Source: an uncultured Verrucomicrobiota bacterium (lineage in GTDB: Bacteria > Verrucomicrobiota > Kiritimatiellia > CAIVKH01). From it: DNA of 64,000 nt. A program made the position numbers and the translations under genes. Below are positions 99-43,680 of this stretch, piece after piece. The stretch covers positions 5,867-69,866 of the forward strand of contig CALKUH010000050.1 in the NCBI GenBank assembly GCA_937996795.1, read 5' to 3'. Below the pieces are notes generated by a model. It saw only the letters and a list, made by a program, of their open reading frames with translations. It made no database searches and was not told the DNA's origin. Numbering within the stretch: the first letter of the stretch is position 1; the number at the start of each line of letters is the position of its first letter.

Positions 99-650
99 AT
101 GATCATGAATGCATGGATGAAGACCTCGATGCTCGCGCTGGCGGTCACCGCACTCACGGCCACGGCCCAACCGGATGGCGGTCCGGGCGGACCCGGCAAG
201 GGCATGGAAAAAATGCGCCACGGCCTCGATCTCGGGCGCATGCTGGACAACGAAGAAGTCGTCCAGAAACTCGGCCTCACGGCGGACCAGGTGACGGCGC
301 TGAAGGCGCGCTTCGCCGAAGCGGAGAAGACCCTGATCAAATTGCGCGCCGACGCACAGCTCGCGGAAGCGGATGTCCGCCGCCTCATGCAGGACGACAC
401 CGTGGACCGCGCGGCCATTATGAAGGCGGTTGAAGCCGCCGGCGCCGCGCAACTCGCCGTGCGCAAGGCCATGATCGAAGAGCGCCTGGCGTTTCGTGAG
501 ATCGCCGGACCGGACGCCGCGAAGAAGGTCCGCCATCACATGGCCAAGCGGATGCAGGGCGGCGGCGGTCCCGAAGGCGAACGCCCGATGCGCAAGGAAA
601 AGAAGGAAAAGCGCGGACCCGGCGCGGGTGGCCCGCCGGTTGAGGAATAA
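99..650 (+). CDS. Periplasmic LTXXQ-motif protein (Spy/CpxP-like stress or chaperone family)
   Basis: N-terminal signal peptide (MKTSMLALAVTALTATAQP). Repeated L-T-x-x-Q motifs (LTADQVTALKARF) and a Lys/Glu-rich C-terminus, as in CpxP/Spy-type periplasmic proteins. Confidence 0.55.
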   Translation: MIMNAWMKTSMLALAVTALTATAQPDGGPGGPGKGMEKMRHGLDLGRMLDNEEVVQKLGLTADQVTALKARFAEAEKTLIKLRADAQLAEADVRRLMQDDTVDRAAIMKAVEAAGAAQLAVRKAMIEERLAFREIAGPDAAKKVRHHMAKRMQGGGGPEGERPMRKEKKEKRGPGAGGPPVEE

Positions 651-654
651 GTTG

Positions 655-700
655 GAAGCGTGATCGGTGACCGGTGATCAGTAACCGGTCACTGGTCACT
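655..700. repeat. GTGACCGGT / ACCGGTCAC palindromic short repeat (family member 1)
   Basis: gtgatcggtgaccggtgatcagtaaccggtcactggtcac lies between the convergent ends of the LTXXQ gene and murA. It shares GTGACC(A/G)GT units with the copies at 5311-5380 and 20292-20345. Confidence 0.6.
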
Positions 701-1969
701 TCTTTCCACATCGGCCCCGAGCGCCCGCAGGCGCTCGTCGACGTTTTCATAGCCGCGGTCGATGACCCCCGCGCTGTCGATGATGCTGGTGCCCTTCGCG
801 CACAGCGCCGCAATCAGCATCGCCATGCCCGCGCGAATGTCGGGCGAACTCATGTGGATGCCGTTCAGCCGCGCGGGGCCCTCGACGAGCACGCGGTGCG
901 GGTCGCACTGCACGATGCGCGCGCCCATCTCGATCAGGCGATCGACAAAGTACATGCGGCTCTCGAACATCTTTTCAAAAAACAGCATGCACCCGCGCGC
1001 CTGCGTCGCCAGCACGATGGCCACGCTCATCAGGTCCGACGGGAACGCCGGCCACGCACCGTCCTCGATTTTCGGGATCGCGCCGCCGAGGTCGCGCCGC
1101 ACGCGGAAATGGTTGTGCGCCGGCTGCACCAGCGTGTCGCCGTCCGGCTTCCACGCGACCCCGAGCTTGGAAAACGCGCGCGCGATGACGGCGAGCGTTT
1201 CGTTTTCCGGAAATCCCTCCACGCGCAACTCGCCGCCGGTCGCCGCCGCCGCGGCGAGGTAGCTGCCGGCCTCGATATAGTCGGGGCCGATCGTGTGCTC
1301 CGCGCCGCCGAGCGCCTCGACGCCCTCGATGCGGAGGCGGTTCGTGCCGAGCCCCTCGATGCGCGCGCCCATTTTGTTGAGCAGCGCGCCCAGGTCCTGG
1401 ACGTGCGGTTCGCACGCCGCGTTGGAGATCGTTGTCACACCATCCGCCGTGGCGGCGGACATCAGGATGTTTTCCGTTGCCGTGACGCTGGCCTCGTCCA
1501 GGAGCAGTGAGGCGCCGCGCAGGCGCCGTGCCGCGCGGAAGGAGAAGAAATCACCGCCCTCGATTTTGACACCCAGTGCACGGAGTCCGAGCAGGTGTGT
1601 ATCCACCCGCCGCCGCCCGATCACATCGCCGCCGGGCGGGAACAGCGTCGCGCGCCCGGTCCGCGCCACGAGGGGACCCGCGAAGAGAATCGATGCGCGC
1701 ACGCGCCGACACAATTCGCGATCCAGCCGTGAGCGCCGGATACGCTGCGCGCGCAGCGTCACCGAGTGGCCGTCGAGCTGGACATCCACCCCGAGCCCCT
1801 CGAGCAGTTCCAGCATGACGTGGACATCCACGATCCGCGGCAGGTTGCGCAACGTCACCGGCTGGTCCGTCAGCAGGCACGCCGTAAGCATCGGCAGCGC
1901 CGCATTCTTGTTGCCGACCGGACGGAAGGTCCCGGAGAGGCGCCGCTGGCCTTTGATGATGAAGCGCAT
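689..1969 (-). CDS. murA: UDP-N-acetylglucosamine 1-carboxyvinyltransferase
   Basis: Full-length (426 aa) match by eye to the MurA/EPSP-synthase fold family (MRFIIKGQRRLSGTFRPVGNKNAALP..., C-terminal IDRGYENVDERLRALGA). Confidence 0.93.
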   Translation of the reverse strand: MRFIIKGQRRLSGTFRPVGNKNAALPMLTACLLTDQPVTLRNLPRIVDVHVMLELLEGLGVDVQLDGHSVTLRAQRIRRSRLDRELCRRVRASILFAGPLVARTGRATLFPPGGDVIGRRRVDTHLLGLRALGVKIEGGDFFSFRAARRLRGASLLLDEASVTATENILMSAATADGVTTISNAACEPHVQDLGALLNKMGARIEGLGTNRLRIEGVEALGGAEHTIGPDYIEAGSYLAAAAATGGELRVEGFPENETLAVIARAFSKLGVAWKPDGDTLVQPAHNHFRVRRDLGGAIPKIEDGAWPAFPSDLMSVAIVLATQARGCMLFFEKMFESRMYFVDRLIEMGARIVQCDPHRVLVEGPARLNGIHMSSPDIRAGMAMLIAALCAKGTSIIDSAGVIDRGYENVDERLRALGADVERSDQ

Positions 1970-4841: not shown

Positions 4842-5927
4842 GTGAAAACCAGCGATTTTGATTATGTCCTGCCCCCGGAACGGATCGCCCAGGATCCGGC
4901 GGAGCGCCGCGATGGATCACGCATGATGGTCCTCCACCGGGCCACCCGGCGATGGGAACACAAGCGCTTCACCGACCTGCCCTCATACCTGCGCGCGGGC
5001 GACCTGCTGGTCTTCAACGACACGAAGGTCATCCCGGCCCGCCTGTTCGGGCGCAAACCCGGCACCGGCGGCCTCGCCGAACTCTTCCTGCTCGAGGAGC
5101 GCGAGCCGGGGGTTTGGGACATCCTGCTGCGCTGCCGCCGCCGCCCCCATCCCGGAGGGCAGCTTGAGCTGGAGGGCGGGGGCTCCGCCGAGATTCTGTC
5201 CTATGGTGAACAAGGCGCGGCGACGGTCCGGTTCCACATCGACCGCCCGGTGCTCGCGTATTTGGAGATGCACGGGCATACGCCGCTGCCGCCTTACATT
5301 AAGAGAGTGACCGGTAATCAGTTATCAGTGACCAGTGAAGGCGCCGAACCGATCACCGGTCACCGGTCACCGGTCACGGACAAGGAGCGCTACCAGACCG
5401 TCTATGCGCGGGCGCCCGGCTCCGTGGCGGCGCCGACGGCGGGGTTGCATTTTACGCCCGGACTGCTGGAGCGCCTGGCCGCGCAGGGCATACCGCGCGC
5501 AGAGGTGACGCTGCACGTCGGGATTGGAACGTTCCGGCCCGTCAGCGCGGAGCGCGTCGAAGATCACGTGATGCACGAGGAGCGGTACTGCGTTCCCGAA
5601 GGGACCGCCCGCGCGATCGCGAACACCCGCGCGAACGGCGGACGTGTCGTTGCGGTGGGCACCACGACCGTGCGCACGCTGGAAAGTGTTTCGGCCCGGC
5701 ACGGCGCCGTCGTGGCGGATTCCGGGCGGACCGGCATCTTCATTTATCCGCCCTACACCTTCCGCGCGGTGGACGCGATGCTCACGAACTTCCACCTTCC
5801 GCAATCGACGTTGCTCATGATGATTTCCGCCTTTGCGGATCGCGAGTTCATCCTCGCCGCCTACGCCGAAGCCGTTAAGGAGCAGTACCGCTTTTTCAGC
5901 TACGGCGATTGCATGCTGATTCTGTAG
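4842..5927 (+). CDS. queA: S-adenosylmethionine:tRNA ribosyltransferase-isomerase
   Basis: The SDFDYVLPPERIAQDP N-terminus, PLPPYIKR, ERYQTVYA and AAPTAGLHFT motifs match QueA. The start is inferred as the GTG at 4842, since the ORF track begins upstream at 4581. The gene carries an in-frame repeat-derived insertion (see findings). Confidence 0.85.
   Translation: MKTSDFDYVLPPERIAQDPAERRDGSRMMVLHRATRRWEHKRFTDLPSYLRAGDLLVFNDTKVIPARLFGRKPGTGGLAELFLLEEREPGVWDILLRCRRRPHPGGQLELEGGGSAEILSYGEQGAATVRFHIDRPVLAYLEMHGHTPLPPYIKRVTGNQLSVTSEGAEPITGHRSPVTDKERYQTVYARAPGSVAAPTAGLHFTPGLLERLAAQGIPRAEVTLHVGIGTFRPVSAERVEDHVMHEERYCVPEGTARAIANTRANGGRVVAVGTTTVRTLESVSARHGAVVADSGRTGIFIYPPYTFRAVDAMLTNFHLPQSTLLMMISAFADREFILAAYAEAVKEQYRFFSYGDCMLIL
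5311..5380. repeat. GTGACC(A/G)GT repeat copy 2, in frame inside queA
   Basis: agtgaccggtaatcagttatcagtgaccagtga...gatcaccggtcaccggtcaccggtcac. It is translated as VTGNQLSVTSEGAEPITGHRSPVT between the conserved PLPPYIKR and ERYQTVY blocks. Confidence 0.65.
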
Positions 5928-5952
5928 GAAATGCCGCGCCGCGCGGCATTTC

Positions 5953-7203
5953 CTACCACGCCGGGATCCGCTCGCCCCGCACCAGGTCCTCGAACGTCTC
6001 GCGCGAGCGCACGACTTCGTGGCGGCCGCCGCTGACCATGATCTCGGCCGCGCGGGTGCGGCTGTTGTAGTTGGAGGACATCGAGAACGCGTAGGCGCCG
6101 GCGCTGTGCACGGCGAGCAGGTCGCCCTGTTGCGCGGCGGGCAGGTCGCGGTCCAGCGCGAGGAAGTCGCCCGACTCGCAGACCGGGCCGACGACATCGC
6201 CGAACACCGTGCCGTCGGTTTGCTTCACGGCGGAAATTTCGTGGTGCGCCTGGTAGAGCGGCGGGCGGATCAGGTCGTTCATCGCCGCGTCCACGATCAG
6301 GAACTGCTTGGACGGCCCCTGCTTCACGTATTGCACGCGCGTCACGAGCAGGCCGGCGTTGCCGACGATGAACCGGCCCGGCTCCATCAGGATCTGCACG
6401 CCCAGCGGCTTGAGGATCGGCACCACCGCGTCCGCAAACGTCTTCGGCAGCAGCGGCTCCTGGTCGGGGCGGTAGCGGATGCCGATGCCGCCGCCGATGT
6501 CGAGCATGCGGAACGTCGGATAGCGCGCCTTCAACTGGCGGCACACCTGCGCCACTTTTTCCGCGGCCTCCGCGTACGGCTGCGCGGACAGGATCTGCGA
6601 GCCGATGTGCATGTGAAGGCCCGCGATTTCGAGCCCCGGCAGCTTCGCGGCCCGCTCGTAGATTTGCAGGGCGCGCAGGATGTCGACGCCGAACTTGTTC
6701 TCCTTCTTGCCCGTGCTGATGTACTTGTGCGTCTTCGGGTCGACATCCGGATTCACGCGGATCGCGATCCGCCCCGTCACGCCCATCGCGGTCGCGCGCG
6801 CGGAGATGCGGTCCAGCTCGGCCTCCGATTCCACGGTGAACAGCAGGATGTTCTCGCGCAGCGCCGCGTCAATCTCGTCCTCCGTCTTGCCCACGCCCGC
6901 GAACGTGATCTTGTCCGCCGGGATGCCCGCGCGCCGCGCGCGCGCCAGCTCGCCCGCCGACACGACGTCCGCCCCCGCGCCCTCCGCCGCCAGCGTCGCG
7001 ATCACCGCTGCGTTCGAGTTCACCTTCACCGCGTAGCAGACCAGCGGCTTCAGCTCCGCCAGCGCGTCCTTCAGCGCGCGGAAATGCGCCTGGATATAGG
7101 TCCGGCTGTAGATGAACAGCGGCGTCCCATACCGTTCCGCCAACTCCGCCACCGCCACGTCTTCCGCGAACAACTGACCACCGCGATACGTAAAGACTTC
7201 CAT
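5953..7203 (-). CDS. lysA: Diaminopimelate decarboxylase
   Basis: Fold-III PLP decarboxylase signature (YAVKVNSN, GxHxHIGSQ, EPGRFIVG, CESGD). Start chosen at MEVFTYRGG, which has an upstream GGAG. Confidence 0.9.
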   Translation of the reverse strand: MEVFTYRGGQLFAEDVAVAELAERYGTPLFIYSRTYIQAHFRALKDALAELKPLVCYAVKVNSNAAVIATLAAEGAGADVVSAGELARARRAGIPADKITFAGVGKTEDEIDAALRENILLFTVESEAELDRISARATAMGVTGRIAIRVNPDVDPKTHKYISTGKKENKFGVDILRALQIYERAAKLPGLEIAGLHMHIGSQILSAQPYAEAAEKVAQVCRQLKARYPTFRMLDIGGGIGIRYRPDQEPLLPKTFADAVVPILKPLGVQILMEPGRFIVGNAGLLVTRVQYVKQGPSKQFLIVDAAMNDLIRPPLYQAHHEISAVKQTDGTVFGDVVGPVCESGDFLALDRDLPAAQQGDLLAVHSAGAYAFSMSSNYNSRTRAAEIMVSGGRHEVVRSRETFEDLVRGERIPAW

Positions 7204-7238
7204 GATAACTCCGCGAATTTTCGCGAATGGGCGCGAAT

Positions 7239-7622
7239 TTATCGAGAACTGTCCAGGACGATTCGTTCCCATTCAAGCGATGAATTTCTAAAGTTCAGAA
7301 TCAGACCAACCTTGAGACCTGTCACGCGCAGATAGTTCAGCATTTGCGCCCGCTCCACATCCGTGATCTCCGCGATGCTTTTCGCATCAACGATTACGCG
7401 ACCCTCAACCACAAGATCCGGAATGTACTCATCCACCTGCTCGCCGCGGTAGTGAATCGGATAGGACGACTGTTTTGAAAAGGAAATGGATTCAAAACGG
7501 AAGTCGACCTCAAGCGCTCGCTCGTACGTTTTCTCCCGCAATCCGCGCCCCACCTCGCCATGAACACGCATCGCGCACCCGACGATGCGGAACACCAACT
7601 CCTTCTCCAACAACTCCGCCAT
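7239..7622 (-). CDS. GxxExxY family protein (PD-(D/E)XK-like)
   Basis: ELLEKELVFRIVGCAMRVHGEVGRGLREKTYERALEVDF matches the GxxExxY family consensus. About 127 aa. Confidence 0.7.
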   Translation of the reverse strand: MAELLEKELVFRIVGCAMRVHGEVGRGLREKTYERALEVDFRFESISFSKQSSYPIHYRGEQVDEYIPDLVVEGRVIVDAKSIAEITDVERAQMLNYLRVTGLKVGLILNFRNSSLEWERIVLDSSR

Positions 7623-7662
7623 GAAACTCCCCATTCGCGCCCATTTGCGCTAATTAGCGGAG

Positions 7663-8865
7663 TTATTTCTGCCCCATCTTCGCCCGCACGCGGAGGCGGA
7701 GGGCGTTGAGTTTGATGAAGCCGGTCGCGTCGCTTTGGTTGTAGCCGCCCGCGCCCTCGAAGCTGGCCATGTGCGGGTCGTAGAGCGACTTCCGCGCCTT
7801 GCGGCCGACCACGCTCGCGGTGCCCTTGTAGAGCTTGATTCGCGCGACGCCGGTCACGTTCGCCACCGCCTCGTCCATCGCCGTCTGCAGCATCTCGCGC
7901 TCCGGCGCGTACCAGAAGCCGTTGTACACCAGCTTCGCGTACTGCGGGATCAGGCTGTTGCGCAGGTGCAGCACTTCGCGGTCCATCGTGAGCTGCTCCA
8001 CCGCCTCGCGCGCGCGGTGCAGAATCGTGCCGCCCGGCGTCTCGTACACGCCGCGGCTCTTCATGCCGACGAACCGGTTCTCGACGAGATCGATGCGGCC
8101 CACGCCGTGCTTGCCGCCCAGCTTGTTCAGCACCTGCATCACGCCGAGCGGGTTCAGTTTCTTCCCGTTCACCGCCACCGCGTTGCCGGCCTTGAATTCC
8201 ACCTCGACATACTCCGGCTTCGCCGGCGCCTGCTCCGGGCTCACGCTCAGCTTGAACATGTCCGCCGGCGGCTCGTTCCACGGATCCTCCAGGATGCCGC
8301 CCTCGAAGCTGATGTGCAGCAGGTTGCGGTCCATCGAATACGGCTTCTTCGCCGACGCCTCGACCGGGATGCCGTGCGCCTCGCAATACGCCAGCATGTC
8401 ATTGCGCCCGGTGAACTGCTTGCGGTAGCGCTCCTCGCGCCACGGCGCGATCACCTGGATGCCGGGCCGCAGCGCGTACGCCGTCAGCTCGAACCGTACC
8501 TGGTCGTTGCCCTTGCCCGTCGCGCCGTGCGCGATCGCATCCGCGCCCTCGGCCACCGCGATCTCCACCATCCGCTTCGCGATCAGCGGGCGCGCGATCG
8601 ACGTGCCCAGCAGGTAGCCGCTCTCATACACCGCGCCCGCGCGGATCATCGGGAACACGAAATCGCGCGCGAACTCTTCGCGCAGGTCGTCCACATAGCA
8701 CTTCGCCGCGCCGGACTTCCGCGCCTTCGCCTTGAGCCCCTTGAGCTCCTCCTCCTGCCCGACATCCGCCGCGAAGCAGATCACCTCCGCGTTGTACGTC
8801 TCCTTGATCCACCCGAGGATCACCGACGTGTCCAGACCGCCCGAATATGCCAATACCACGCGCAT
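7663..8865 (-). CDS. argG: Argininosuccinate synthase
   Basis: [17 protein letters not shown]-loop ATPase start with conserved ArgG blocks throughout; 400 aa. Confidence 0.95.
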
Positions 8866-11298: not shown

Positions 11299-11380
11299 CC
11301 GCGGCGAAAAATTACAGACGTTGCAAACGCCGAAAAAACTTTTTACAGACGTTGCAACTTCCTCCCTGACACCCGGCACC
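11299..11380. repeat. Intergenic composite element copy 2: two TTACAGACGTTGCAA motifs plus a CCCTGACACC arm
   Basis: aaaaattacagacgttgcaaacg ... aaaaaactttttacagacgttgcaacttcctccctgacaccc lies between the glycosyltransferase stop and the nth start. Confidence 0.6.
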
Positions 11381-17970: not shown

Positions 17971-18897
17971 CTACCGCACGTAGCCGAATTTTTTCAGGAG
18001 CCAGAAGTTGCGGTCCCACTTGGGTTCGACCTTCACCCAGAGTTTGACGCGGACGGGTTTGCCGAACCAGGTGGCGAGTTCGCCTTCGGAGGAGCGTGTC
18101 ACCTTGCGCAGCAATCGGCCTTTTTCGCCGATGACGATGCCTTTTTGGGAGAATTTCTGGACGTAGATCGTGGCCTGCACGCTCCACGGCTCCGTCGTGT
18201 CGTCGAGCTCCTCGACGGACACGGCGATCGCGTGCGGCAACTCCTCGCGCAGCACGCCGAAGAGTTTTTCGCGGATGACGTCGGCGATGGCCAGCTTGCG
18301 GGGATAATCCGTGAGCACGTCCTCGGGGAACAGCAGCGGGCCTTCCGGCACCTGCGCGAAGAGCGTGGCGGTCAGCGCGTCGAGCCCCTCGCCTTTCTCC
18401 GCCGAGGCCTCCAGCCACACCGGGTCGGGCCGTTCCACCGCGTCGGCCGGGCGCTGGGCGGGCCACGCCTCGCGCAGCGCGGCGGCGCAGGCGCCGCCGA
18501 GGTCCATCTTGTTCAACACGGCGACGACGGGCAGCGTCTCGCGCTGCAATTTCTTCATCCAGCCGAGGTCCTCGTCGCGCGGCGGCTGGCTCGCGTCGAG
18601 CACGAGCAGCGCGACGTCGGCGCCCTCCGCCGCGCCGCGCGCCATCTGGTTCATCACGCGTCCGAGATCGCCCACGGCCTTGTGCACGCCGGGCGTGTCG
18701 TGGAACACGAGCTGGCCGCGCGGTTCGGTGAGGATGCCGCGCACGACGTTGCGTGTCGTCTGCGCGACGGGCGAGACGATGCTCACCTTTTCGCCGAGGA
18801 TCGCGTTCAGCAGCGACGACTTGCCGACATTCGCGCGGCCGACCAGCGCGATGATGCCGGCGCGGGACTGCGTTGCGGGTTCGGGGGTATCGCTCAC
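17971..18897 (-). CDS. era: GTPase Era
   Basis: G1 GRANVGKSS, G3 DTPG, G4 NKMD and a C-terminal KH domain; 308 aa. The inferred GTG start overlaps the stop of the upstream MBL-fold gene (GTGA). Confidence 0.9.
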   Translation of the reverse strand: MSDTPEPATQSRAGIIALVGRANVGKSSLLNAILGEKVSIVSPVAQTTRNVVRGILTEPRGQLVFHDTPGVHKAVGDLGRVMNQMARGAAEGADVALLVLDASQPPRDEDLGWMKKLQRETLPVVAVLNKMDLGGACAAALREAWPAQRPADAVERPDPVWLEASAEKGEGLDALTATLFAQVPEGPLLFPEDVLTDYPRKLAIADVIREKLFGVLREELPHAIAVSVEELDDTTEPWSVQATIYVQKFSQKGIVIGEKGRLLRKVTRSSEGELATWFGKPVRVKLWVKVEPKWDRNFWLLKKFGYVR

Positions 18898-20279
18898 AGC
18901 TCCACCTCGTCGCCCTGTTTGGGCAGGAACACCTGCGCGTGGCCGTCGCCGCGCAGCCGCTCCGCGAGCGCCTCGCGCTGGTCGGATTCGCCGTGCACGA
19001 GGAATATCCGTTTGGGTTGCGCCTTGCGCGCATAGCGCGCGAGGTCGTCGATGTCGGCGTGTCCGCTGAACGCGTTCAGCGTGGCCACCTCCGCGCGCAA
19101 TGTGAAGAGATCGCCGAAGATGCGGACCTGCGCGACCCCCTCCTGCAGGCGGCGCCCGAGCGTGTAGGACGCCTGATAGCCGACGAGCACGATGCTGTTG
19201 GCCTTGTTTTCGATGCCGTGTTTCAGGTGGTGCAGGATGCGGCCGTGTTCGCACATGCCGGAGGCGGCGATGACGATGCACGGTTTGTCCGACGCCGTGA
19301 TGGCCTTCGAGTCGTTCACGGTGATCGACGGGTGGACCCACGGCGGGCAGGTCAGGCAGCCCATCGCCGCGTAGAGTTTTTTGCCGCCTTCATCGAGGTA
19401 TTCCTGGTGCTGGTCGAACACCTCCGCAACGGCGTTCGCCATCGGGCTGTCGACGTAGATCGGGACCTGCGGGAGACGGCCCTGCAGGATCAGGCTGTTG
19501 AGGTGGTAGATGAGTTCCTGCGCGCGTTCGAGGGCGAAGGACGGGATGAGCACCTTGCCGCCGCGCGCGAGGGTGCGTTTCGCGATGTCGCACAACTGCT
19601 GGTCGGCCATCGCCGCGTCGTCGTGCCGGCGGTTGCCGTAGGTCGATTCGAGCACGAGCACGTCCACGGGGTCCATGAACTCCGGGTCGCGGATCAGCGG
19701 GAGGCCGAAGCGGCCGAGGTCCACGGCATACCCGACGCGCGCGGAGCGGCCGCCTTCCTCCAGGTCGAACACGGTCAGGGCGGAGCCGAGGATGTGGCCG
19801 GCGTCGAGATCGGTGAAGGCGACGCCGGGCGCGAGTTCGATGCGCTGGCGGTAGTCGTGTCCGCGGAGGAGCCGGATCGCGCGTTCCGCGTCGGCGCGCG
19901 AGTAGAGCGGGACCACGGGCGGCAGGCCGCGCCGGTTGGTCTTTTGGTTCAGGTATGCGGCGTCCGCCTCCTGGATGAACGCGGAGTCGCGCAGCATGAT
20001 CGGGGCGAGCGCGGTCGTGGCGCGCGTGGCGAGGATCGGGCCGGCGTAGCCCTGCGCCGCCCACCAGGGCAGGCGTCCGCAGTGGTCGATGTGCGCGTGG
20101 GAGAGCAGCGTGTGCTGGATCGACGCCGGGTCCACGGCGCGCGCGCGGTTGAGCGCCTCGGATTCCGCGCGGCGTCCCTGGAAGAGCCCGCAATCGCGCA
20201 GGACGCGGCAGCCCGCGGCCTCGATGAGGTGCATTGAGCCGGTGACCGTGTCGGTTCCGCCGAGGAATTGTAAGCGCAT
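18894..20279 (-). CDS. MBL-fold metallo-hydrolase, beta-CASP RNA-metabolising family (RNase J / CPSF-like)
   Basis: HxHxDH motif (SHAHIDHCG), beta-CASP signature blocks and a C-terminal RMMBL-like region; 461 aa. Confidence 0.8.
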   Translation of the reverse strand: MRLQFLGGTDTVTGSMHLIEAAGCRVLRDCGLFQGRRAESEALNRARAVDPASIQHTLLSHAHIDHCGRLPWWAAQGYAGPILATRATTALAPIMLRDSAFIQEADAAYLNQKTNRRGLPPVVPLYSRADAERAIRLLRGHDYRQRIELAPGVAFTDLDAGHILGSALTVFDLEEGGRSARVGYAVDLGRFGLPLIRDPEFMDPVDVLVLESTYGNRRHDDAAMADQQLCDIAKRTLARGGKVLIPSFALERAQELIYHLNSLILQGRLPQVPIYVDSPMANAVAEVFDQHQEYLDEGGKKLYAAMGCLTCPPWVHPSITVNDSKAITASDKPCIVIAASGMCEHGRILHHLKHGIENKANSIVLVGYQASYTLGRRLQEGVAQVRIFGDLFTLRAEVATLNAFSGHADIDDLARYARKAQPKRIFLVHGESDQREALAERLRGDGHAQVFLPKQGDEVEL

Positions 20280-20291
20280 CGTGATAGAGTT

Positions 20292-20345
20292 TCGGGTTAA
20301 CAGTGACCAGTGACCAGTGACCAGTGACCAGTGACCAGTAAACTA
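20292..20345. repeat. (GTGACCA)5 tandem heptamer, repeat copy 3
   Basis: cagtgaccagtgaccagtgaccagtgaccagtgaccagtaaactagtg lies in the divergent promoter region between the MBL RNase gene and the EndoIII-like gene. Confidence 0.7.
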
Positions 20346-20365: not shown

Positions 20366-21055
20366 ATGGGACAGCGTGGCCATGTGAAACCGCCGGTGCG
20401 CGCGGTGTATCGCGCGTTGCACCGCCATTTCGGGCCGCAGCGGTGGTGGCCCGCGCGGACGCGGTTCGAGATGATGGTGGGCGCGATCCTGACGCAGAAC
20501 ACGGCGTGGACGAACGTCGAGCGGGCGATCGCGGAGCTGCGCCGGCGCCGCGTGCTGACGCCGCGCGCGCTGCACGATGTGCCGCCGGCGACGCTCGCGG
20601 GGTGGATCCGTCCCGCGGGCACGCCCACCGTGAAGGCCCGCCGGCTTCGCGCGTTCACGACGTGGGTGATGGAGGCGCACGGCGGTTCGCTGGCCCGTGC
20701 CCTCCGCGCGCCGGCGGCGGAGTTGCGCCGCGCGCTGCTGTCGATCCACGGCATCGGCCCGGAGACGGCGGACTGCATGGTGCTGTATGCGGCGCGCCGC
20801 CCGGTGTTCGTGGTCGATGCCTACACACGCCGTTTTTTGCACCGGCACGGATGGCTCGCGGGCGCGCCGTCGTATGACGACGTGGCGGCGCTTTTCACGC
20901 GGGCGTTGCCGGCGGACGCCGCGTTGTATAATGAATACCACGCGCTGATTGTCGCGCTCGGGAAATCGTATTGCCGGGCGACGCCGCGGTGCGGGGAATG
21001 CCCGTTGGGGCGATGGGGGCGGGTGGAGGAAGGGACGAGGGCGAGGCACGAGTGA
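20366..21055 (+). CDS. Endonuclease III-related HhH-GPD DNA glycosylase-like protein
   Basis: HhH motif (IHGIGPETADCMVLYA) and the GPD region. No C-terminal Fe-S cysteine cluster of the Nth type. Confidence 0.7.
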   Translation: MGQRGHVKPPVRAVYRALHRHFGPQRWWPARTRFEMMVGAILTQNTAWTNVERAIAELRRRRVLTPRALHDVPPATLAGWIRPAGTPTVKARRLRAFTTWVMEAHGGSLARALRAPAAELRRALLSIHGIGPETADCMVLYAARRPVFVVDAYTRRFLHRHGWLAGAPSYDDVAALFTRALPADAALYNEYHALIVALGKSYCRATPRCGECPLGRWGRVEEGTRARHE

Positions 21056-30810: not shown

Positions 30811-33792
30811 TCAGGCTTGGGTCGGGTGTTCCTCGCGGTGCAGGGCGCGGCGGACGGCGTCGAGCAGGTCGTCCGCGCGATAGGGCTTGGGCAGGATGCC
30901 GGAGAAACCGGCGCTCTTGAACTGGGCGAGCACTTCGTCGGGCGCATAGCCGCTGGAGACGATGGCGTTCAGGCCCGGATCGCGCGCGCGCAGGTGCCGC
31001 AGCGCCTCGCGGCCGCCCATGCCGCCGGGCACGGTGATGTCGAGGATGGCGAGATCGACGCGCCGCCCCGCGCGGAGCTCCTCGTCGAGCAGGCGGACGG
31101 CCTCTTCGCCGCGGTCCGCGACGAGCACCTCGTAGCCGGCCCTGCCCAGGGCGCGCTGCGCGAGGCCGAGGATGGGCTTTTCGTCGTCCATCACCAGGAT
31201 GCGGCCCTGCCCGGTCGCGGCGCGCGGCGCGGCGGCGGCTTCCGCCGGGAGCTCGGCGGTTTCCGATGCAGCCGGCAGGTAGAACGTAAAGGCGGCGCCG
31301 TTCCCGGGTTCCGACGTCACCTCGATCAGGCCGCCGTGTTTCTGCACGATGGAAAAGCACATCGTGAGGCCGAGTCCGCTGCCTTTTTTCTTGGTCGTGA
31401 AATACGGGTCGAAGATGCGGCCGATGAGGCGGTCCGGGATGCCGGTGCCGGTGTCGGACACGCGGACCTGCACATAGCGGCCGGGCGCGAGGCGCGGCAC
31501 CTCGTTTGCGCCGACGTGCCGGTTGGCGGTCTCGATCGTGATGACGCCGCCCGCGGGCATGGCCTGGTCGGCGTTGATGATCAGGTTCTGGATGACCTGT
31601 GTGATCTGGCCGCTGTCGATTTCCGCCCGCCACGTGTCCGGGTCGATCTTGTACACGCAGCGCGAGGCGGACCCGCGCACGGTGAAGCCGGCGGCCTCGC
31701 GGACCACGGCGCCGACGTCGTGCAGTTTCTTGATCGGCGCGCCGCCCTTCGCGAAGGTCAGCAACTGGTGCGTGAGGTCGCGGGCGCGGATGGCCGCGCG
31801 CTCCGCGTCCTGCAGCGCCTCGGCCAGCTCCGCGGGCGGCGTGCCGGGCTCGCGCGCGGCGGAGATGTTGCCGAGGATGGCGGTCAGGATGTTGTTGAAG
31901 TCGTGGGCGAGGCCGCCGGCGAGCAGGCCGAGCGACTCCAGCTTCTGCGTGCGCATGCGCTCCTCTTCGATGCGCCGCCGCTCGGAGAGGTCCTGCACGA
32001 TGGCGATCCCGCTGGTGATCGCGCCCGCCGCGTCGAACAGCGGGGCCGCGCGCAGGCTGATCCACGTGTCCTCCTCCAGCGCGATGAACCCGCGCGAGCC
32101 TTCGTGGTAGCCCTCGCCGCCATCGAGCGCGGCGCGCAGGGTCGGCAGGATGGCCGCGTCCGCCAGTTCTTCCAGCGGGGCGCCCGCGAGGTCGCGCCGG
32201 CTCTTGCGCAGCAGCGCGGCGAAGCGGTCGTTGAATTCCGTGATGCGCAGTTCGCGGTCGTAGTGGAAGACGCCGGCGGGCGCATACTCGAAGAGCAGCC
32301 GGTAGCGTTCGCCCGCCTCGCGGTGCTGCTGCATCTCGGTGCGCAGCGCGCGGTTCGCCTCCGCGAGCTCGCGGGTGCGCTGGTGGACGCGCTGTTCGAG
32401 GTCGGCGCTCAGCGCGCGCTGTTCGCGCTCGGCGGCGGCGAGGCGCAGGGCGCTTTCCCACAGCCGGTGATGCCGGGTGAAGAAATCGAGGATCAACAGC
32501 ACCAGCAGCGCGCCGAGGCCCAGGCCGATCAGCCGCCAGCGCGCGATGGACTGCAGATAGTCGTCGGCGGCGATGTCGAGGCCCAGCGCGAGGCGCACGC
32601 GCCCGTCGCCCTCCTCGCGCAGCGCGGGCACGGTGGCCGACACCCAGCGCCCCCAGCGGTCGGTGAACGGGCCGAAGGTGTAGGGCTTGGCGGTGTTGAA
32701 GAAGGTGTAGTCCTGCGGGGAGATGTCGCCTTCGTAGAGGTCGCCGGGCCGGACACGGGCCGACGGGGTCCTCGCTTCCGACGAGGCGTAGAACATGAAA
32801 CGGCCGCCGCGCAGGCCATAGAGGTAGATCTGCTGCACATCGGGAAACGCGAGGCGCGCGCGCGTCAGCATGGATTCGACTTCATGCACCACGGGGTGCC
32901 GCTCGTCCGTGGGGCTGGCGCGAAGGGCCGAGAGCAACGAGGGATCGAGCAGGTTGGCCACGCTGGAGGCGCGCTCGAGGATGGAGGTGCGCAGCATGCG
33001 TCCCGCGAGCCGCCCGAGCGCATCCGTCCCGATCCACGTCGCGAGAAACACGCCGGCGAGTGCACTGATCGTGGTCTTCAGACGCAGGGGCGCTTCGTGC
33101 TGGAGCGCGTGGCCCGTGCGCGGCAGGTGGGCCATGGAAATCGTCCACAGGGCCGCGGCGAGGCCGGCGGCGATCACGGCGCGCACGACTTCCATCGGCA
33201 GGCCGGTCCCGTGCAGCCACGCCTGCGTGTGGAGGACCTGCGACGGGCCGAGCGCGGAGGGGCCGGTGAAGAGGCCCGCGGCGATGGCGTAGAGCAACAG
33301 GAAGAAGGCGGCAGCCTTGAGCCCGCCCCGGCCGGGTCCCTCGCTATCGCGCGCGGCGCGCCGGAAGGCGAGGCTCGCGAGAAACGCGCCGGGCAGGGCC
33401 AGCCCGTAGCGCACGGCCGCCTCCCACTCCGCCGGGCCCCCGCGGGCGGCCAGCACCACGGTGAGGACGAGCAGGCCGGGGAACAGCCCGCGGCGCCCCG
33501 GCAGCGGGCCGTATGCCGCGCATCCGCGGAGGCCGAAATCGAGCAGGATCGCGAACGAGACCGCGAGCAGGCCGATGCGGAGGATCGGCGGGGCGACGGC
33601 CTCCCACGCCGGCGCGGCGCCCGCCCACCACTCATACAAGCCGTGCAGGGCGGCGAACAGGGACAGCCGTGGCCACGGCAGGCGCGAGGCGCCGTGGCGG
33701 CGGGGCGTCTGCGCGAAGGCCGCGAGGATCAGGAAGGCCGATCCGTAGAGAAAATAGATGAAATCCATGTGCTGTTGGAACGTCGCACTCAT
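30811..33792 (-). CDS. Hybrid sensor histidine kinase/response regulator (multi-TM N-terminal sensor, PAS, HisKA, HATPase_c, REC)
   Basis: About 8 N-terminal TM helices plus a periplasmic segment. H-box LAGGLAHDFNNIL, G-boxes DTGTGIP and GSGLGL. The C-terminal receiver has the phospho-acceptor Asp in LAILDITVPGG. Confidence 0.88.
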   Translation of the reverse strand: MSATFQQHMDFIYFLYGSAFLILAAFAQTPRRHGASRLPWPRLSLFAALHGLYEWWAGAAPAWEAVAPPILRIGLLAVSFAILLDFGLRGCAAYGPLPGRRGLFPGLLVLTVVLAARGGPAEWEAAVRYGLALPGAFLASLAFRRAARDSEGPGRGGLKAAAFFLLLYAIAAGLFTGPSALGPSQVLHTQAWLHGTGLPMEVVRAVIAAGLAAALWTISMAHLPRTGHALQHEAPLRLKTTISALAGVFLATWIGTDALGRLAGRMLRTSILERASSVANLLDPSLLSALRASPTDERHPVVHEVESMLTRARLAFPDVQQIYLYGLRGGRFMFYASSEARTPSARVRPGDLYEGDISPQDYTFFNTAKPYTFGPFTDRWGRWVSATVPALREEGDGRVRLALGLDIAADDYLQSIARWRLIGLGLGALLVLLILDFFTRHHRLWESALRLAAAEREQRALSADLEQRVHQRTRELAEANRALRTEMQQHREAGERYRLLFEYAPAGVFHYDRELRITEFNDRFAALLRKSRRDLAGAPLEELADAAILPTLRAALDGGEGYHEGSRGFIALEEDTWISLRAAPLFDAAGAITSGIAIVQDLSERRRIEEERMRTQKLESLGLLAGGLAHDFNNILTAILGNISAAREPGTPPAELAEALQDAERAAIRARDLTHQLLTFAKGGAPIKKLHDVGAVVREAAGFTVRGSASRCVYKIDPDTWRAEIDSGQITQVIQNLIINADQAMPAGGVITIETANRHVGANEVPRLAPGRYVQVRVSDTGTGIPDRLIGRIFDPYFTTKKKGSGLGLTMCFSIVQKHGGLIEVTSEPGNGAAFTFYLPAASETAELPAEAAAAPRAATGQGRILVMDDEKPILGLAQRALGRAGYEVLVADRGEEAVRLLDEELRAGRRVDLAILDITVPGGMGGREALRHLRARDPGLNAIVSSGYAPDEVLAQFKSAGFSGILPKPYRADDLLDAVRRALHREEHPTQA

Positions 33793-36785
33793 GAGGCTTG
33801 CGGATGGGAGGGATGCAGCGTCTGGCCCATGAGGTGCAGGAGCGCGGGCGGAGGATAGGGCTTGGCGAGGAATCCGTCCAGCGCCGCGAGCCGCTCGCGC
33901 CAGCGTTCGCGTTCTTGGGTGTAGCCGCTGGTCAGGAGGATCTTCAGCGCCGGGTGCCGCGCCCGGGCCTCCTCCGCCAAGTCGAGCCCGTTGCCGTCCG
34001 GCAGCACGACATCCGAAAACATCAGCGCAAACGGGATCTCCGGCGCAAGCAGCAGCGCGCGCGCCTCCGCGACCGTGCCCACGGCGGTGACCCGGTAGTG
34101 GTTGCGATGCAGGATCCGCGTGGTGAGTTCGCGCACGCCCGTCTCATCCTCGACCACCAGAATGTGTTCGCCGCGCCCCTCCAGCCCCCGCGCCACCGTG
34201 GTGGCGGCGGGGTCCGGCGACGCCGGAAGCGCCCCGGTCTCCTCCGTCGGCAGGTAGATGCAAAAGGTGCTGCCCTCGCCAGGCGCGCTGTGCACCTCGA
34301 TGAACCCCTCGTGCTGGCGCACGATGCCGTACACCACCGGAAGACCGAGCCCGGTGCCCCTGCCCGGTTCCTTTGTGGTGAAGAACGGCTCGAACAACTG
34401 CTCCCGCACCTCGGGGGTCATGCCGACGCCGGTATCCTGCACGCACAGGCGGACGAAGCGGCCCGGCCGCGCGCCGGGCACGGGCGGCAGGGCCCCGTCC
34501 TCCAGGCACACCACGCTCGTGGCGAAACGCAGCAGGCCCCCGCCGGGCATCGCGTCGCGGGCGTTGATCGACAGGTTGACGAGGATCTGTTCGAGCTGGC
34601 CGGCATCCGCGCGGATGGGGGGCAGCTGCTCATCGAAGTCCGTTTCGATGCGAATGTTTTCCCCCAGCAGCCGGTGCAGCAACTTGGCCGCGCCCCTGAC
34701 GATTTCGTTGAGCGCGAGGGACTCCACATGCATCTTCTGGCGCCGCCCGAAGGCCAGCAGCTGGCGCGTGAGCGCGGCGGCGCGCTGGGCGGCCCGGTCG
34801 ATTTCCAACACGTCGCTCCGACGCGGGTCGCCCTCCGCGATTTCGGAGAGCAGGATCGCGCTGAACCCGGTGATGGCCTGGAGCAGGTTGTTGAAATCGT
34901 GCGCGATGCCCCCCGCCATTCGCCCGATGCTCTCCATCTTCTGGGCCTGCCGGAGCTGCAACTCCAGCGTCTTTTGCTCGGTGACGTCCTGTTTGATCGC
35001 GATAAAATGCGTCAATTTCCCCGCGCTGTCCCGCACCGGCGTGATGGTCATTTCCTCCGTGACCAGCGACCCGTTCTTGCGGCGGTTCGTGATCTCGCCG
35101 CGCCAGACCAGCCCGGCGGTGATCGTCTTCCACATCGTGTCGTAGAACGCGCGCGCGTGGACGCCGGAGGCGAGCAGGGACGGCGTCTGGCCGACGACCT
35201 CGTGTCGCGCATAGCCCGTGTGGCGGCAGAACGCATCGTTCACCCACAGGATGCGGCCCTGCGCGTTGGTGATGACGATGCTGTTGGCGGCGGCGCCCAG
35301 CGCCGTGCGCTGGAGGCGCGTTTCCTCCTCCGCCCCCTCGCGCCGGATCGCTTGGGCGATCAACTGCGCGGCGAGGCGGAGGATTTCCTTCTCCGGCGCG
35401 GTCCAGCGACGCGGCACGCGGCCATCCGCGAAACAGATGAAGCCCCACCACGCCCGGTCCGCGACAATGGGCGCGAGGTGCACCGAGAGGATGCCGCGTT
35501 CCGCCAGCATCCCGCGCGCGGGCTCCGGCAATTCTTCAACGACGCCTCCAACCGTTTCCCCTTTCGCAAGCCGGTCGCACCAGTCTTCGAGGCCCGCGAG
35601 GGACAGGTTGCAGGAAAACGGGCGCCCGGGTTCCGCGAGCGGCGCGTGCGTGGGCGCGTTCCATTCGCAGCGCAGGGTGCTTTCCTGCGCGCCGCCCCCG
35701 GCGTCCACCTGTTGGAATAACGCGACGCGGCTGACCTCGGCCGCAAGGCCGAGCTCGCGGAGGAACGGATCGATGTGGCGGGTCCAGCCCTCGTCGCGCA
35801 TCAGGCGCTCCGCCGCCGTCGCGGCGGCCGCAAGCAGGGCGTCGCGACGCCGTGTGCCCTGCGCGAAATCGGCGTTCATCCGCTCCTGCAGCTTGGCGTG
35901 GATCGCGGTGGTGATCGCGGGCAGCAGGTTGTGCAGGATATTCCGGTCCCGGTCCGTCAGCGGCGGATCGTCCGCATACGCCTGCACGGCGACCACCCCG
36001 AGCGCCGCATTGCCGTAGCGCAGCGGGCCGCCGAGCCACTGGCGCGGGCGCGCGCCCAGGACCTCCGCCGCGCCGCTCGCCTCAAGCGCCGCGAGCCCGG
36101 CCTCGTCGAGCAGCACGGTCTCTCGGCCGTTCATCGCATATTCGGTGAGCCCGCGCCCCGGCCGCTTGCACGGCGGCGCCGGGTCCGCGCGGTCCACCCA
36201 GCATGGAAAATACAGGGCGTCGTGCTCCCGGCTGTAGAGGGCGATGTAGAAGTGGCGGGCGGGCATCACGGCGGCGAGGGCCTCGTGGATCTCGCCGCCC
36301 AGCGCCTCGACCGAGGTGGCGGCAGGCGCGGCTCGCGCAATCCGCTGTTCCGCCGCGCGGATGGCATCGCCGAGCGCGCGCTCCCGCAGGTCGCGGGCGG
36401 TGATGACGACCGTGCGCCTGCCCTCGAACACGAAATCGTGCGGGGCGCACTCCAGCGGCACCGCGGACCCGTCCCGATGCAGCGCCCGGAAGTGGATCGC
36501 GTAGCGCGCCTCCGGATGGCGGAGGTAATCGGTGAGTTCCGCGGCGGCGCGGTCACGGTCCTCCGGGTGCACCAAGTCGAGCACGTTCAGCCCCCGCAGC
36601 GCGTCGGGGTCGTGCCCCAGCACCGCGCGCACGGCCTCGCTGGCCTGCAACAGCGAGCCGTGTTCATCAAGGACCACCTGCACGTCAAAGCCGTTCCGCC
36701 ACGCGGCGGCTCCCAGCCGGTCCATCGTGTCCGCGCCGCCGATGTCCCGGCGGCCCTGCCCTGTGCGTTCACCCGAAATCGTCAT
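33789..36785 (-). CDS. Cytoplasmic hybrid sensor histidine kinase (PAS-GAF-GAF-PAS-HisKA-HATPase_c-REC)
   Basis: H-box MAGGIAHDFNNLL, G-boxes DTGVGM and GTGLGL, receiver with FSDVVLPDG. A 4-nt overlap (ATGA) with the upstream kinase. Confidence 0.88.
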   Translation of the reverse strand: MTISGERTGQGRRDIGGADTMDRLGAAAWRNGFDVQVVLDEHGSLLQASEAVRAVLGHDPDALRGLNVLDLVHPEDRDRAAAELTDYLRHPEARYAIHFRALHRDGSAVPLECAPHDFVFEGRRTVVITARDLRERALGDAIRAAEQRIARAAPAATSVEALGGEIHEALAAVMPARHFYIALYSREHDALYFPCWVDRADPAPPCKRPGRGLTEYAMNGRETVLLDEAGLAALEASGAAEVLGARPRQWLGGPLRYGNAALGVVAVQAYADDPPLTDRDRNILHNLLPAITTAIHAKLQERMNADFAQGTRRRDALLAAAATAAERLMRDEGWTRHIDPFLRELGLAAEVSRVALFQQVDAGGGAQESTLRCEWNAPTHAPLAEPGRPFSCNLSLAGLEDWCDRLAKGETVGGVVEELPEPARGMLAERGILSVHLAPIVADRAWWGFICFADGRVPRRWTAPEKEILRLAAQLIAQAIRREGAEEETRLQRTALGAAANSIVITNAQGRILWVNDAFCRHTGYARHEVVGQTPSLLASGVHARAFYDTMWKTITAGLVWRGEITNRRKNGSLVTEEMTITPVRDSAGKLTHFIAIKQDVTEQKTLELQLRQAQKMESIGRMAGGIAHDFNNLLQAITGFSAILLSEIAEGDPRRSDVLEIDRAAQRAAALTRQLLAFGRRQKMHVESLALNEIVRGAAKLLHRLLGENIRIETDFDEQLPPIRADAGQLEQILVNLSINARDAMPGGGLLRFATSVVCLEDGALPPVPGARPGRFVRLCVQDTGVGMTPEVREQLFEPFFTTKEPGRGTGLGLPVVYGIVRQHEGFIEVHSAPGEGSTFCIYLPTEETGALPASPDPAATTVARGLEGRGEHILVVEDETGVRELTTRILHRNHYRVTAVGTVAEARALLLAPEIPFALMFSDVVLPDGNGLDLAEEARARHPALKILLTSGYTQERERWRERLAALDGFLAKPYPPPALLHLMGQTLHPSHPQAS

Positions 36786-43615: not shown

Positions 43616-43680
43616 GCTGCGCGCGCCCGGGTGTCAGGTGTCAGGTTTCGAAAGGTTCCTCCCTGACACCCGAAACCCGC
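43616..43680. repeat. Intergenic element copy 3: GGTGTCAGGTGTCAGG ... CCCTGACACCC inverted arms only (hairpin)
   Basis: gggtgtcaggtgtcaggtttcgaaaggttcctccctgacacccg lies between the gnd stop and the MATE start. Confidence 0.6.

Follow-up and report, generated by a model that had tools for sequence, protein, structure and literature searches.

The locus described here raises a simple question: what is a palindrome of tandem repeats doing in the middle of a conserved tRNA-modification enzyme, and does the protein make any use of it? The window (the whole stretch of 64,000 nucleotides analysed, from contig CALKUH010000050.1 of an uncultured member of the Kiritimatiellia) carries on its forward strand, at 4842-5927, the gene queA, encoding tRNA preQ1(34) S-adenosylmethionine ribosyltransferase-isomerase, a protein of 361 residues read from a GTG start. 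An exact look-up of this protein gave no match in the collection searched, which starts the gene at an ATG further upstream; over the 361 residues, its entries P0122 and P0124 agree completely with the window QueA. Inside queA lies a hairpin element of 71 nucleotides (5307-5377, forward strand, read directly from the sequence) that is built from heptamer arrays and translated in frame. The feature is real and unusual in form, and it is likely functionless, in which respect it is ordinary. On balance we favour the view that it is a tolerated repeat palindrome, a passenger with no role in QueA, rather than an exapted loop.

The enzyme looks intact despite the insert, and the reading frame of queA is unbroken across it. 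The whole Pfam profile PF02547 aligns to the window QueA (positions 1-322 of 322, E = 4e-134), and the protein passes two NCBIfam equivalogs, NF001140 with 451 bits against a cut-off of 324 and TIGR00113 with 376 against 267. An AlphaFold2 model calculated with a 68-sequence alignment as input has a mean predicted local distance difference test score (pLDDT) of 88 and a predicted template modelling score (pTM) of 0.87, and its top Foldseek matches are the QueA crystal structures 1vky, 1yy3 and 1wdi, with probability 1.00. The 68-sequence alignment contains 80 invariant columns, those of the PLPPY and RYQT motifs among them. Profiles and fold point to an intact enzyme that would be active, as the initial annotation of this DNA had supposed when it called the frame preserved and the protein probably functional. 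The extra residues, which it had described as a loop, are modelled as disordered coil, with pLDDT < 50 for residues 158-174.

The insert consists of two inverted arrays and a spacer. The left arm (5307-5338) is made of forward heptamers, GTGACCG, GTAATCA, GTTATCA and GTGACCA at 5307-5334, followed by GTGA; the hairpin loop, 11 nucleotides at 5339-5349 (AGGCGCCGAAC), corresponds roughly to residues EGAEP; and the right arm (5350-5377) holds the reverse-complement heptamers, CGATCAC and then three copies of CGGTCAC, which are free of stops in every frame. Together with the base at 5378 the element forms 24 in-frame codons, QueA residues 156-179 (VTGNQLSVTSEGAEPITGHRSPVT). Tandem Repeats Finder (TRF) reports period-7 arrays at 5306-5338 (4.7 copies) and at 5348-5377 (4.3 copies, 95% matches), and the left arm of the window copy is degraded, with 73% period-7 matches. 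The predicted RNA fold is a single long hairpin of -32 kcal/mol (z = -3.1), the second weakest among the orthologue inserts compared. A comparison of window positions 1-24000 with Rfam, allowing E up to 1, gave no match.

Between the conserved PLPPYI and ERYQT blocks the window QueA has 28 residues (KRVTGNQLSVTSEGAEPITGHRSPVTDK), whereas just 3 residues of the structures 1vky, 1wdi and 1yy3 align to query residues 156-180. The same segment measures 7-14 residues in 76 diverse QueA loci (7 in 63 of these, otherwise 9, 11, 13 or 14); this control comprises the matches that a genome scan with the window QueA listed, which come mostly from Firmicutes and are at best 58% identical. It is again 7-14 residues long in 45 of the 46 metagenomic queA loci from unrelated lineages that were listed as matches in a metagenome scan with a degenerate LPPYIKR DNA pattern, the outlier being L098, which is described below. 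The window loop exceeds insertion-free QueA by some 17-21 residues, so that the initial annotation was right both about the position of the insertion and about its size of about 19 residues.

Similar sequence is found elsewhere in the window. The motif GTGACCRGT occurs 14 times against 0.79 expected, a count reached in none of 100 shuffles; its clusters lie at 660-699, 5307-5377 and 20303-20339, and a lone match at 23007 is probably due to chance. The window contains five heptamer arrays in all, four of which are intergenic. Judged by its sequence, the queA insert belongs to a dispersed family of tandem heptanucleotide arrays, usually arranged as inverted pairs. That a repeat-derived segment had been inserted in frame within queA, as first proposed for this gene, is borne out by these arrays of the same kind at intergenic sites.

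We then asked how widely the insert is shared. The closest QueA proteins come from Kiritimatiellia metagenome-assembled genomes, according to the names in their sources, and the top 65 (62-92% identity) were compared. About 25 of them (65-92% identity) have a loop of 21-49 residues at the same position that reads like translated heptamers, for example VTGDQCPVTS..PVTGHRSPVTD or VIRDPSSVVR..DHGSQITDH. The loop is exactly 28 residues long in 13 of the 65, and some relatives have merely 10-18 residues there. An insertion-free outgroup or sister clade, also of the Kiritimatiellia, shows a uniform 11-residue loop of the form xRxxGSLDxDR. A rough neighbour-joining tree of 333 columns, from which the loop was excluded, places hairpin-type loops in all three main ingroup branches. 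With loops in about 25 of 65 orthologues and in every main branch, the insert is old and clade-wide. The strain-specificity that an orthologue alignment was meant to probe is not seen, and the same hairpin has been read as DNA in ten of these relatives. Loops of the same length in other lineages, which the initial annotation had regarded as a potential argument against a repeat origin, do exist; at the DNA level they are the same repeat hairpin, and the repeat origin therefore stands.

Twelve orthologous queA loci were read as DNA, and they share the synteny dnaN-dnaA...murA-glmS-prepilin-queA-lysA-argG. Ten of the twelve carry the same hairpin, in which four heptamers in forward orientation are followed by a short loop and then by about four in reverse; it begins right after AAR AGR codons in all ten, and folding energies range from -30 to -77 kcal/mol. 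The heptamer unit varies by lineage (GTGACCG in several, GTGATCC in L085, GTGATCA/GTCATCA in L211), and the right-arm sequence shifts along with the left arm. The insert of L084 is 126 nucleotides long through duplication of the left arm and loop, and that of L213, at 147 nucleotides, contains within its loop a further hairpin that is itself complete. L087 and L088 carry four copies of a purine-rich and unrelated unit, ACGGAAR, translated as TEDGKRKTEHD and lacking a right arm; this array forms no hairpin (0 to -3 kcal/mol). The metagenome contig Ga0214473_10219889 (L098), from an unrelated lineage with a QueA that is 49.6% identical, has four GTGCGGG units after PLPPYIKR and a 34-residue loop, an independent heptamer array in the QueA linker. 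An assembly artefact was rejected, as the architecture recurs in many independent assemblies.

The alleles carry a clear imprint of the reading frame. A perfect forward array of at least three units puts a TGA into every frame, and only the TGA of unit 3 falls in the QueA frame. None of ten inserts has a stop in that frame, while the other two frames contain one to four stops in 19 of 20 cases. In the window the sole spot where a heptamer TGA would be read in frame is the triplet TTA (Leu161, 5322-5324, forward strand), which has been mutated to sense. The unit 3 triplets in ten orthologues are likewise all sense (TTA, AAA, TGT, GGG, TGT, TCA, TGT, TCA, TTA and CTA), so that stop triplets are found in 0 of 10 cases at unit 3 against 22 of 30 at units 1, 2 and 4 (Fisher p = 5e-5). 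Length obeys the same frame: P0014 and P0017 lack exactly GHRxPVT, seven residues or 21 nucleotides, equal to three right-arm heptamers, and every allele seen is in frame (>40 proteins, 12 DNA sequences), with length changes in multiples of 3.

We also examined how the two arms change relative to each other. Pairing of left arms with their own right arms averages -40.2 kcal/mol, compared to -30.5 kcal/mol with the right arms of other species, a result reached in 2 of 20,000 permutations. Covariation was scored in eight aligned inserts, which are mutually related, on the hairpin structure of the L081 fold, itself one of the aligned sequences. Under these terms standard pairs make up 80.7% of cells, a share that falls to 16-41% if the partners are displaced by 1-3 columns. 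Two-sided change is seen in 9 of 26 pairs, and 20 cells have changed in both arms, where shuffles give 9.4 +/- 2.6 and none of 500 reaches 20. This shows that the arms evolve in concert, which is compatible with selection or with hairpin-templated correction.

The tempo of change differs between close and distant comparisons. Relative to L089, the nearest relative with DNA, the protein is 95.5% and third positions are 85.8% identical outside the insert, while the insert is 63.9% identical in DNA and 11/24 in peptide. Relative to L081 and L210, third positions are 56% and 43% identical, near saturation, and the insert DNA is 79% and 74% identical. The insert thus outpaces silent sites in the short term, yet over long divergence it does not stray far from the heptamer consensus, a pattern that is expected for repeat turnover or homogenisation.

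Variation is also seen at the level of near-identical strains. A different hairpin allele is carried by P0001, P0123 and P0126, which are about 96% identical to the window QueA. P0125 is about 98% identical, with 4 differences outside the loop and an identical C-terminal half, and it has an 18-residue allele of TEDGKRK type (TEDGKRKTGKEGAPDR) that keeps the EGA of the window loop and has no right arm. P0016 and P0133, which belong to another cluster, are 99.4% identical to each other, and have a 28-residue allele of GTGACCA type and a 25-residue allele of GTGATCC type, respectively. P0133 and the more distant P0024 have a common loop together with a common Phe-to-His change 12 residues upstream, which looks like a short recombination tract. 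Length polymorphism within populations, for which the initial annotation had suggested a check, is therefore extensive among near-identical strains.

Overall, we favour the following account. The insert is a copy of a GTGAYCR hairpin family that is otherwise intergenic in these Kiritimatiellia genomes, and one copy would have lodged once, long ago, in the permissive QueA linker between PLPPYI and ERYQT, where it could persist through harmless translation as a disordered loop. Subsequent change may proceed by slippage in 7-nucleotide steps, accepted only in frame-preserving combinations, by correction of one arm against the other, by segmental duplication, and by short-tract recombination between lineages. 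Translation then filters these changes, holding length changes to multiples of 3 and destroying the single in-frame TGA. A passenger is favoured because the conserved traits (7-nucleotide period, arm complementarity and frame) belong to the DNA, while the peptide is variable and disordered, and because hairpin-less alleles occur in otherwise intact queA genes. From this we infer that the insert has no function in QueA.

Some observations weigh against this account. Both arms have been kept across lineages with saturated synonymous sites, which could equally reflect selection on an RNA or DNA hairpin. Three unrelated units (GTGAYCN, ACGGAAR and the GTGCGGG of L098) each occur in about 4 copies from the same codon, and such recurrence may point to a site-specific process, not to one accident and a permissive loop. 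The complete hairpin nested within that of L213 looks like active insertion. Frameshifted alleles are under-reported in protein databases, which makes the finding of in-frame alleles throughout partly an ascertainment effect. Finally, a single ancient origin is our reading of a rough neighbour-joining tree that is compatible with one gain or with several.

The intergenic arrays of the window show what the family looks like outside a reading frame. A hairpin of the GTGAYCR family at 660-699 (TRF array 660-689) lies between a convergent open reading frame (ORF) at 99-650 (+) and murA at 689-1969 (-). A terminator scan scored it as terminator-like, with a 16-pair stem followed by TTCTTTCC, and its right arm at 687-699 encodes the last murA residues (..SDQ) and the TGA stop (689-691, minus strand). 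The equivalent array in L081 provides a TAA stop for murA, and therefore gene ends are also reshaped by heptamer arrays. Heptamer hairpins occupy the matching intergenic site in L081, L082, L084, L085, L210 and L211. At 20299-20340 there is a CAGTGAC array with no inverted arm (TRF 20301-20339: 5.6 copies, 100% matches, score 78), within an 86-nucleotide gap between divergent ORFs at 18894-20279 (-) and 20366-21055 (+); it is the most slippage-prone tract of the window and could alter promoter spacing. A GGTGTCA-type array with a short complementary arm is intergenic at 43628-43670. The remaining array, at 1987-2090 in the murA-glmS gap, is a GGTGTCR hairpin (GGTGTCR x3 ... CCGACACC) with a loop enlarged by other repeat sequence. 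This loop contains two copies of TTTACAGACGTTG(T/C)AA, and a related TTTTTACAGACGTTGCAAC sequence is found again at 11320-11361; the two represent another small repeat family, apparently inserted in the hairpin loop. The first 5.4 kb of the window holds three of the five arrays. In all relatives compared for synteny (L081-L085, L210 and L211), dnaN and dnaA lie some 3-5 kb upstream of the counterpart of ORF 99-650, which would put the start of the window probably within a few kb of the replication origin.

The murA-glmS gap differs in content between relatives. In L081 (6687-7255), L084 (6715-7246) and L210 (6572-7140) it holds a gene for a four-helix-bundle '23S rRNA IVS protein' (TIGR02436 / PF05635), which is bracketed by inverted GTGAYCR arrays, 4 units on one side and 9-12 on the other, with the C-terminus of the protein (..TTGHWSPVTGH) encoded by the array. 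Elsewhere the site has a GGTGTCR hairpin, as in the window and in L085, where it is a clean 4+4 hairpin, or nothing, as in L082. A profile search gave no copy of the four-helix-bundle gene in the window or the other loci examined. That the hairpins are empty versions of an IVS-gene cassette is an idea taken from this one orthologous locus. Among 2.9 million viral contigs, 13 have at least 3.5 heptamer units, and only L218 is informative. In this IMG/VR contig (74% G+C), a 388-residue phage ORF that matches no PHROG family lies between long inverted arrays of this same heptamer, with about 12 CYGGTCA units upstream (1349-1437) and about 13 GTGACCR units downstream (2645-2740).

These brackets invite a broader alternative, which we consider possible but unlikely: that the paired arrays constitute an undescribed class of self-propagating or hypermutable palindromic cassettes in Kiritimatiellia and some phages, with a preference for existing hairpin loops, and that the queA copy is actively exchanged, structured as RNA, and modulates queA expression. 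Under the same proposal a cassette could stand empty, as in the plain hairpins, enclose a handful of codons, as in queA, or enclose a complete gene, as in L081, L084 and L210 and in L218.

A narrower proposal is that the hairpin is retained for a role as nucleic acid, either as structure in the queA mRNA or as a binding array for a heptamer-recognising protein, with translation a mere constraint; in its mRNA version the structure would set queA expression through RNase III-type cleavage, through an effect on stability or through pausing. The arms do covary and have stayed complementary over long divergence, the insert is nearer its heptamer consensus than the saturated third positions, and the stems are strong (-30 to -77 kcal/mol). 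Intergenic members also sit where hairpins are useful, as with the terminator-like example at 660-699 and its counterparts at the same convergent site in six relatives, and oppositely oriented arrays of the family heptamer lie on either side of whole genes (L081, L084, L210 and the viral contig L218). However, near-identical strains as well as L087 and L088 have hairpin-less alleles (0 to -3 kcal/mol) in a queA that is otherwise intact, the window copy has a left arm degraded to 73% and the weakest fold but one, there is no Rfam match in the region searched, and arm-to-arm correction can yield covariation without selection. We therefore regard a nucleic-acid role as rather improbable.

Similarly doubtful, in our estimation, is the proposal that these are active miniature mobile elements, akin to transposable elements of the miniature inverted-repeat type (MITEs), repetitive extragenic palindromic (REP) sequences or Rickettsia palindromic elements (RPEs), so that the alleles represent independent insertions or replacements at the QueA site. 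The whole element is an inverted repeat. The nested 4+4 hairpin of L213 follows GAGA|GTGATC and the outer one AAGAGA|GTGATC, different heptamer types begin at the same codon, even in the unrelated L098, whole alleles differ between strains that are 98-99% identical, and in L081 the queA copy and an intergenic copy both have GTGTCC as the third unit of the left arm. Against mobility, the window and the orthologous loci show no target-site duplication, in particular none at the queA junctions, no target shared upstream of the five window arrays, and no parent element or associated transposase, since the Y1 transposase gene beside queA in L085 is flanked by palindromes of GTAG type. The best-resolved swap, that of P0133, shares a flanking substitution with the donor-like P0024 and so resembles homologous recombination. 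In-frame copies in other real proteins are also rare: when an idealised translation of the hairpin was used as a peptide query, no more than 281 protein clusters had a 5-residue word in common with it, and the 6 that scored were hypothetical ORFs of 60-87 residues that lie over arrays, which gives no evidence of another host protein.

The initial annotation had presented the loop as a repeat exapted into coding sequence, and on that reading QueA would have acquired a new surface for interactions, with tRNA or a partner protein for instance. A length of exactly 28 residues recurs often (in 13 of the top 65 sequences), and the loop is placed in a linker between the conserved PLPPYI and ERYQT. 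Nevertheless we consider this very improbable. The peptide is only 11/24 identical between proteins that are 95.5% identical elsewhere, the loop is predicted to be disordered (pLDDT < 50), and what is conserved lies in the DNA, in heptamer period and arm complementarity, not in the residues. Near-identical strains have unrelated loops, including TEDGKRK... peptides, and some close relatives have just 10-18 residues there, which speaks for a tolerated loop and not for a peptide that has gained a function. The insert is then better described as a tolerated passenger than as an exaptation.

A last proposal is phase variation by one-unit slippage that shifts the frame and reversibly abolishes queuosine modification. 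In its favour, queA is dispensable in many bacteria, and the right arm contains three perfect units of a length, 7, that does not divide by 3. Heptamer tracts are also reported to mediate such switching in Haemophilus influenzae (PMC8262952, PMC2651432). The proposal is nonetheless barely credible, for the tracts here are of 3-4 units and mostly imperfect, far below known switching tracts, and all alleles seen are in frame, with length changes in multiples of 3.

The surroundings of queA hold further palindromes and variable genes. A perfect GTAG-tagged palindrome (GTAGGAAATGCCGCG / CGCGGCATTTCCTAC) at 5924-5956 overlies the queA stop codon in the convergent queA-lysA gap, and at this site L085 and L086 have a gene for a 174-residue Y1 transposase, RAYT-like (RAYT: REP-associated tyrosine transposase), between GTAGGAGGGGCTTTACGCCCC palindromes. 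These genomes thus contain a separate family of GTAG-tagged palindromes. Downstream, at 7239-7634 on the minus strand and within 7205-7666, a 131-residue GxxExxY gene (TIGR04256, PD-(D/E)XK family) is bracketed by 34-nucleotide inverted repeats, 88% complementary and made of tandem decamers (CGCGAATNNN). What fills the lysA-argG gap differs between relatives: L082 and L083 have a similar gene there, L081 only a gene for a HicB antitoxin-like protein, L087 a HicA/HicB pair and L084 no gene. The gap is a variable cassette site. Further away, about four tandem copies of a unit of about 480 nucleotides, 65-91% identical, occupy 61700-63400 and suggest a gene for a repeat-domain protein, and long inverted matches of up to 233 nucleotides, 71-78% complementary, between 31500-35000 and 38400-39200 suggest diverged inverted paralogues.

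The queA locus is of interest beyond this gene. Bacterial heptamer repeats, whether short tandemly repeated repetitive (STRR) sequences, TAACTGA repeats or the arrays of Xanthomonas and Nostoc, are without an accepted origin or function, and protein-coding palindromes have been treated as nearly exclusive to Rickettsia; this locus joins both topics and is a rare case outside Rickettsia. Translation serves here as a built-in recorder of repeat change, preserving evidence of frame maintenance, TGA removal, loss of 21 nucleotides from an arm, co-evolution of arms and swaps of alleles. The system is natural and tractable, and suited to asking what maintains such repeats, be it the way they mutate, their mobility or selection that acts on nucleic-acid structure. 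In practical terms, loops of this kind make proteins look more divergent than they are, and one may take them for strain markers or for errors of assembly.

Comparison with known systems places the insert between several of them. RPEs (Ogata et al. 2000 Science, 2002 Genome Res) are elements of about 100-150 bp with family-specific sequences, found in dozens of genes of Rickettsia (summarised in PMC10969869). The queA element resembles them in being a palindromic repeat that sits in frame in a housekeeping gene and is translated at a fold-compatible position, in belonging to a family that is also intergenic, and in being common to orthologues across species; it stands apart in that it has 71 nucleotides, consists entirely of tandem heptamers, and is found in a Kiritimatiellia host. 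It is, moreover, interior to one well-defined protein, as judged from the peptide search, and far more variable between close strains. Membership of the RPEs was rejected on size, heptamer substructure, taxon and rarity in other proteins, and also on sequence, although the element was not set directly against any RPE.

With REP/REPIN elements, which are mobilised by RAYT (Y1) transposases, the heptamer hairpins have in common that they are short dispersed palindromes, often between convergent genes, and possible terminators (PMC3116915, PMC3733652). They differ in that they begin with GTGA, lack a GTAG/CGTC tag, have an internal 7-nucleotide periodicity, and have no linked RAYT gene. A RAYT link was considered and rejected: within the roughly 20 kb per genome that were examined, the Y1_Tnp gene of L085 has GTAGGAGGGGCTTTACGCCCC palindromes on its flanks instead of heptamers.

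Heptanucleotide repeats are of the same kind. Cyanobacterial STRR repeats were reportedly described from Calothrix by Mazel et al. in 1990, and the L081 array unit AATGACC is the reverse complement of the STRR unit TTGGTCA. The arrays here are composed of head-to-tail 7-nucleotide units, dispersed and mainly intergenic, touching gene ends, and found alike in relatives; their consensus is GTGAYCR, which matches neither TAACTGA nor STRR1-3, and so marks a different family of the same kind of repeat. Heptamer simple-sequence repeats are over-represented in many bacteria, possibly through polymerase slippage; between related genomes their intergenic positions persist, and their length and sequence vary (PMC4692102). 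STRR and the G-rich arrays of Xanthomonas and Nostoc described there are likewise dispersed tandem heptamers, mostly intergenic near gene ends and some of them inverted, but they differ in unit sequences and taxa, and no conserved in-frame copy in an enzyme is described in that paper.

A parallel in coding logic is offered by direct repeats of the heptamer TAACTGA, which occur in Beggiatoaceae, Cyanobacteria and Bacteroidetes (MacGregor 2015, PMC4679880). These too are 7-nucleotide tandem arrays, in 2-6 copies and mainly intergenic. Their forward arrays stop all frames, so that only reverse or gene-end copies survive in ORFs, the reverse copies being readable; forward copies overlap gene ends, much as the array at the murA stop does here. 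The left arm of the window copy even includes one exact reverse-complement unit (TCAGTTA, in the GTTATCA register), and the peptide of QLSVIS type is encoded in relatives as well. The families are unlike in unit (GTGAYCR) and taxon, in the copy inside a conserved enzyme rather than at a protein edge, and in arrangement, with inverted hairpin pairs here against one indirect repeat among 170 sets (PMC4679880). The literature searched yielded no paper linking Kiritimatiellia with such repeats. In short, the queA insert is a repeat of the STRR and TAACTGA kind and works like an RPE, yet is distinct from both.

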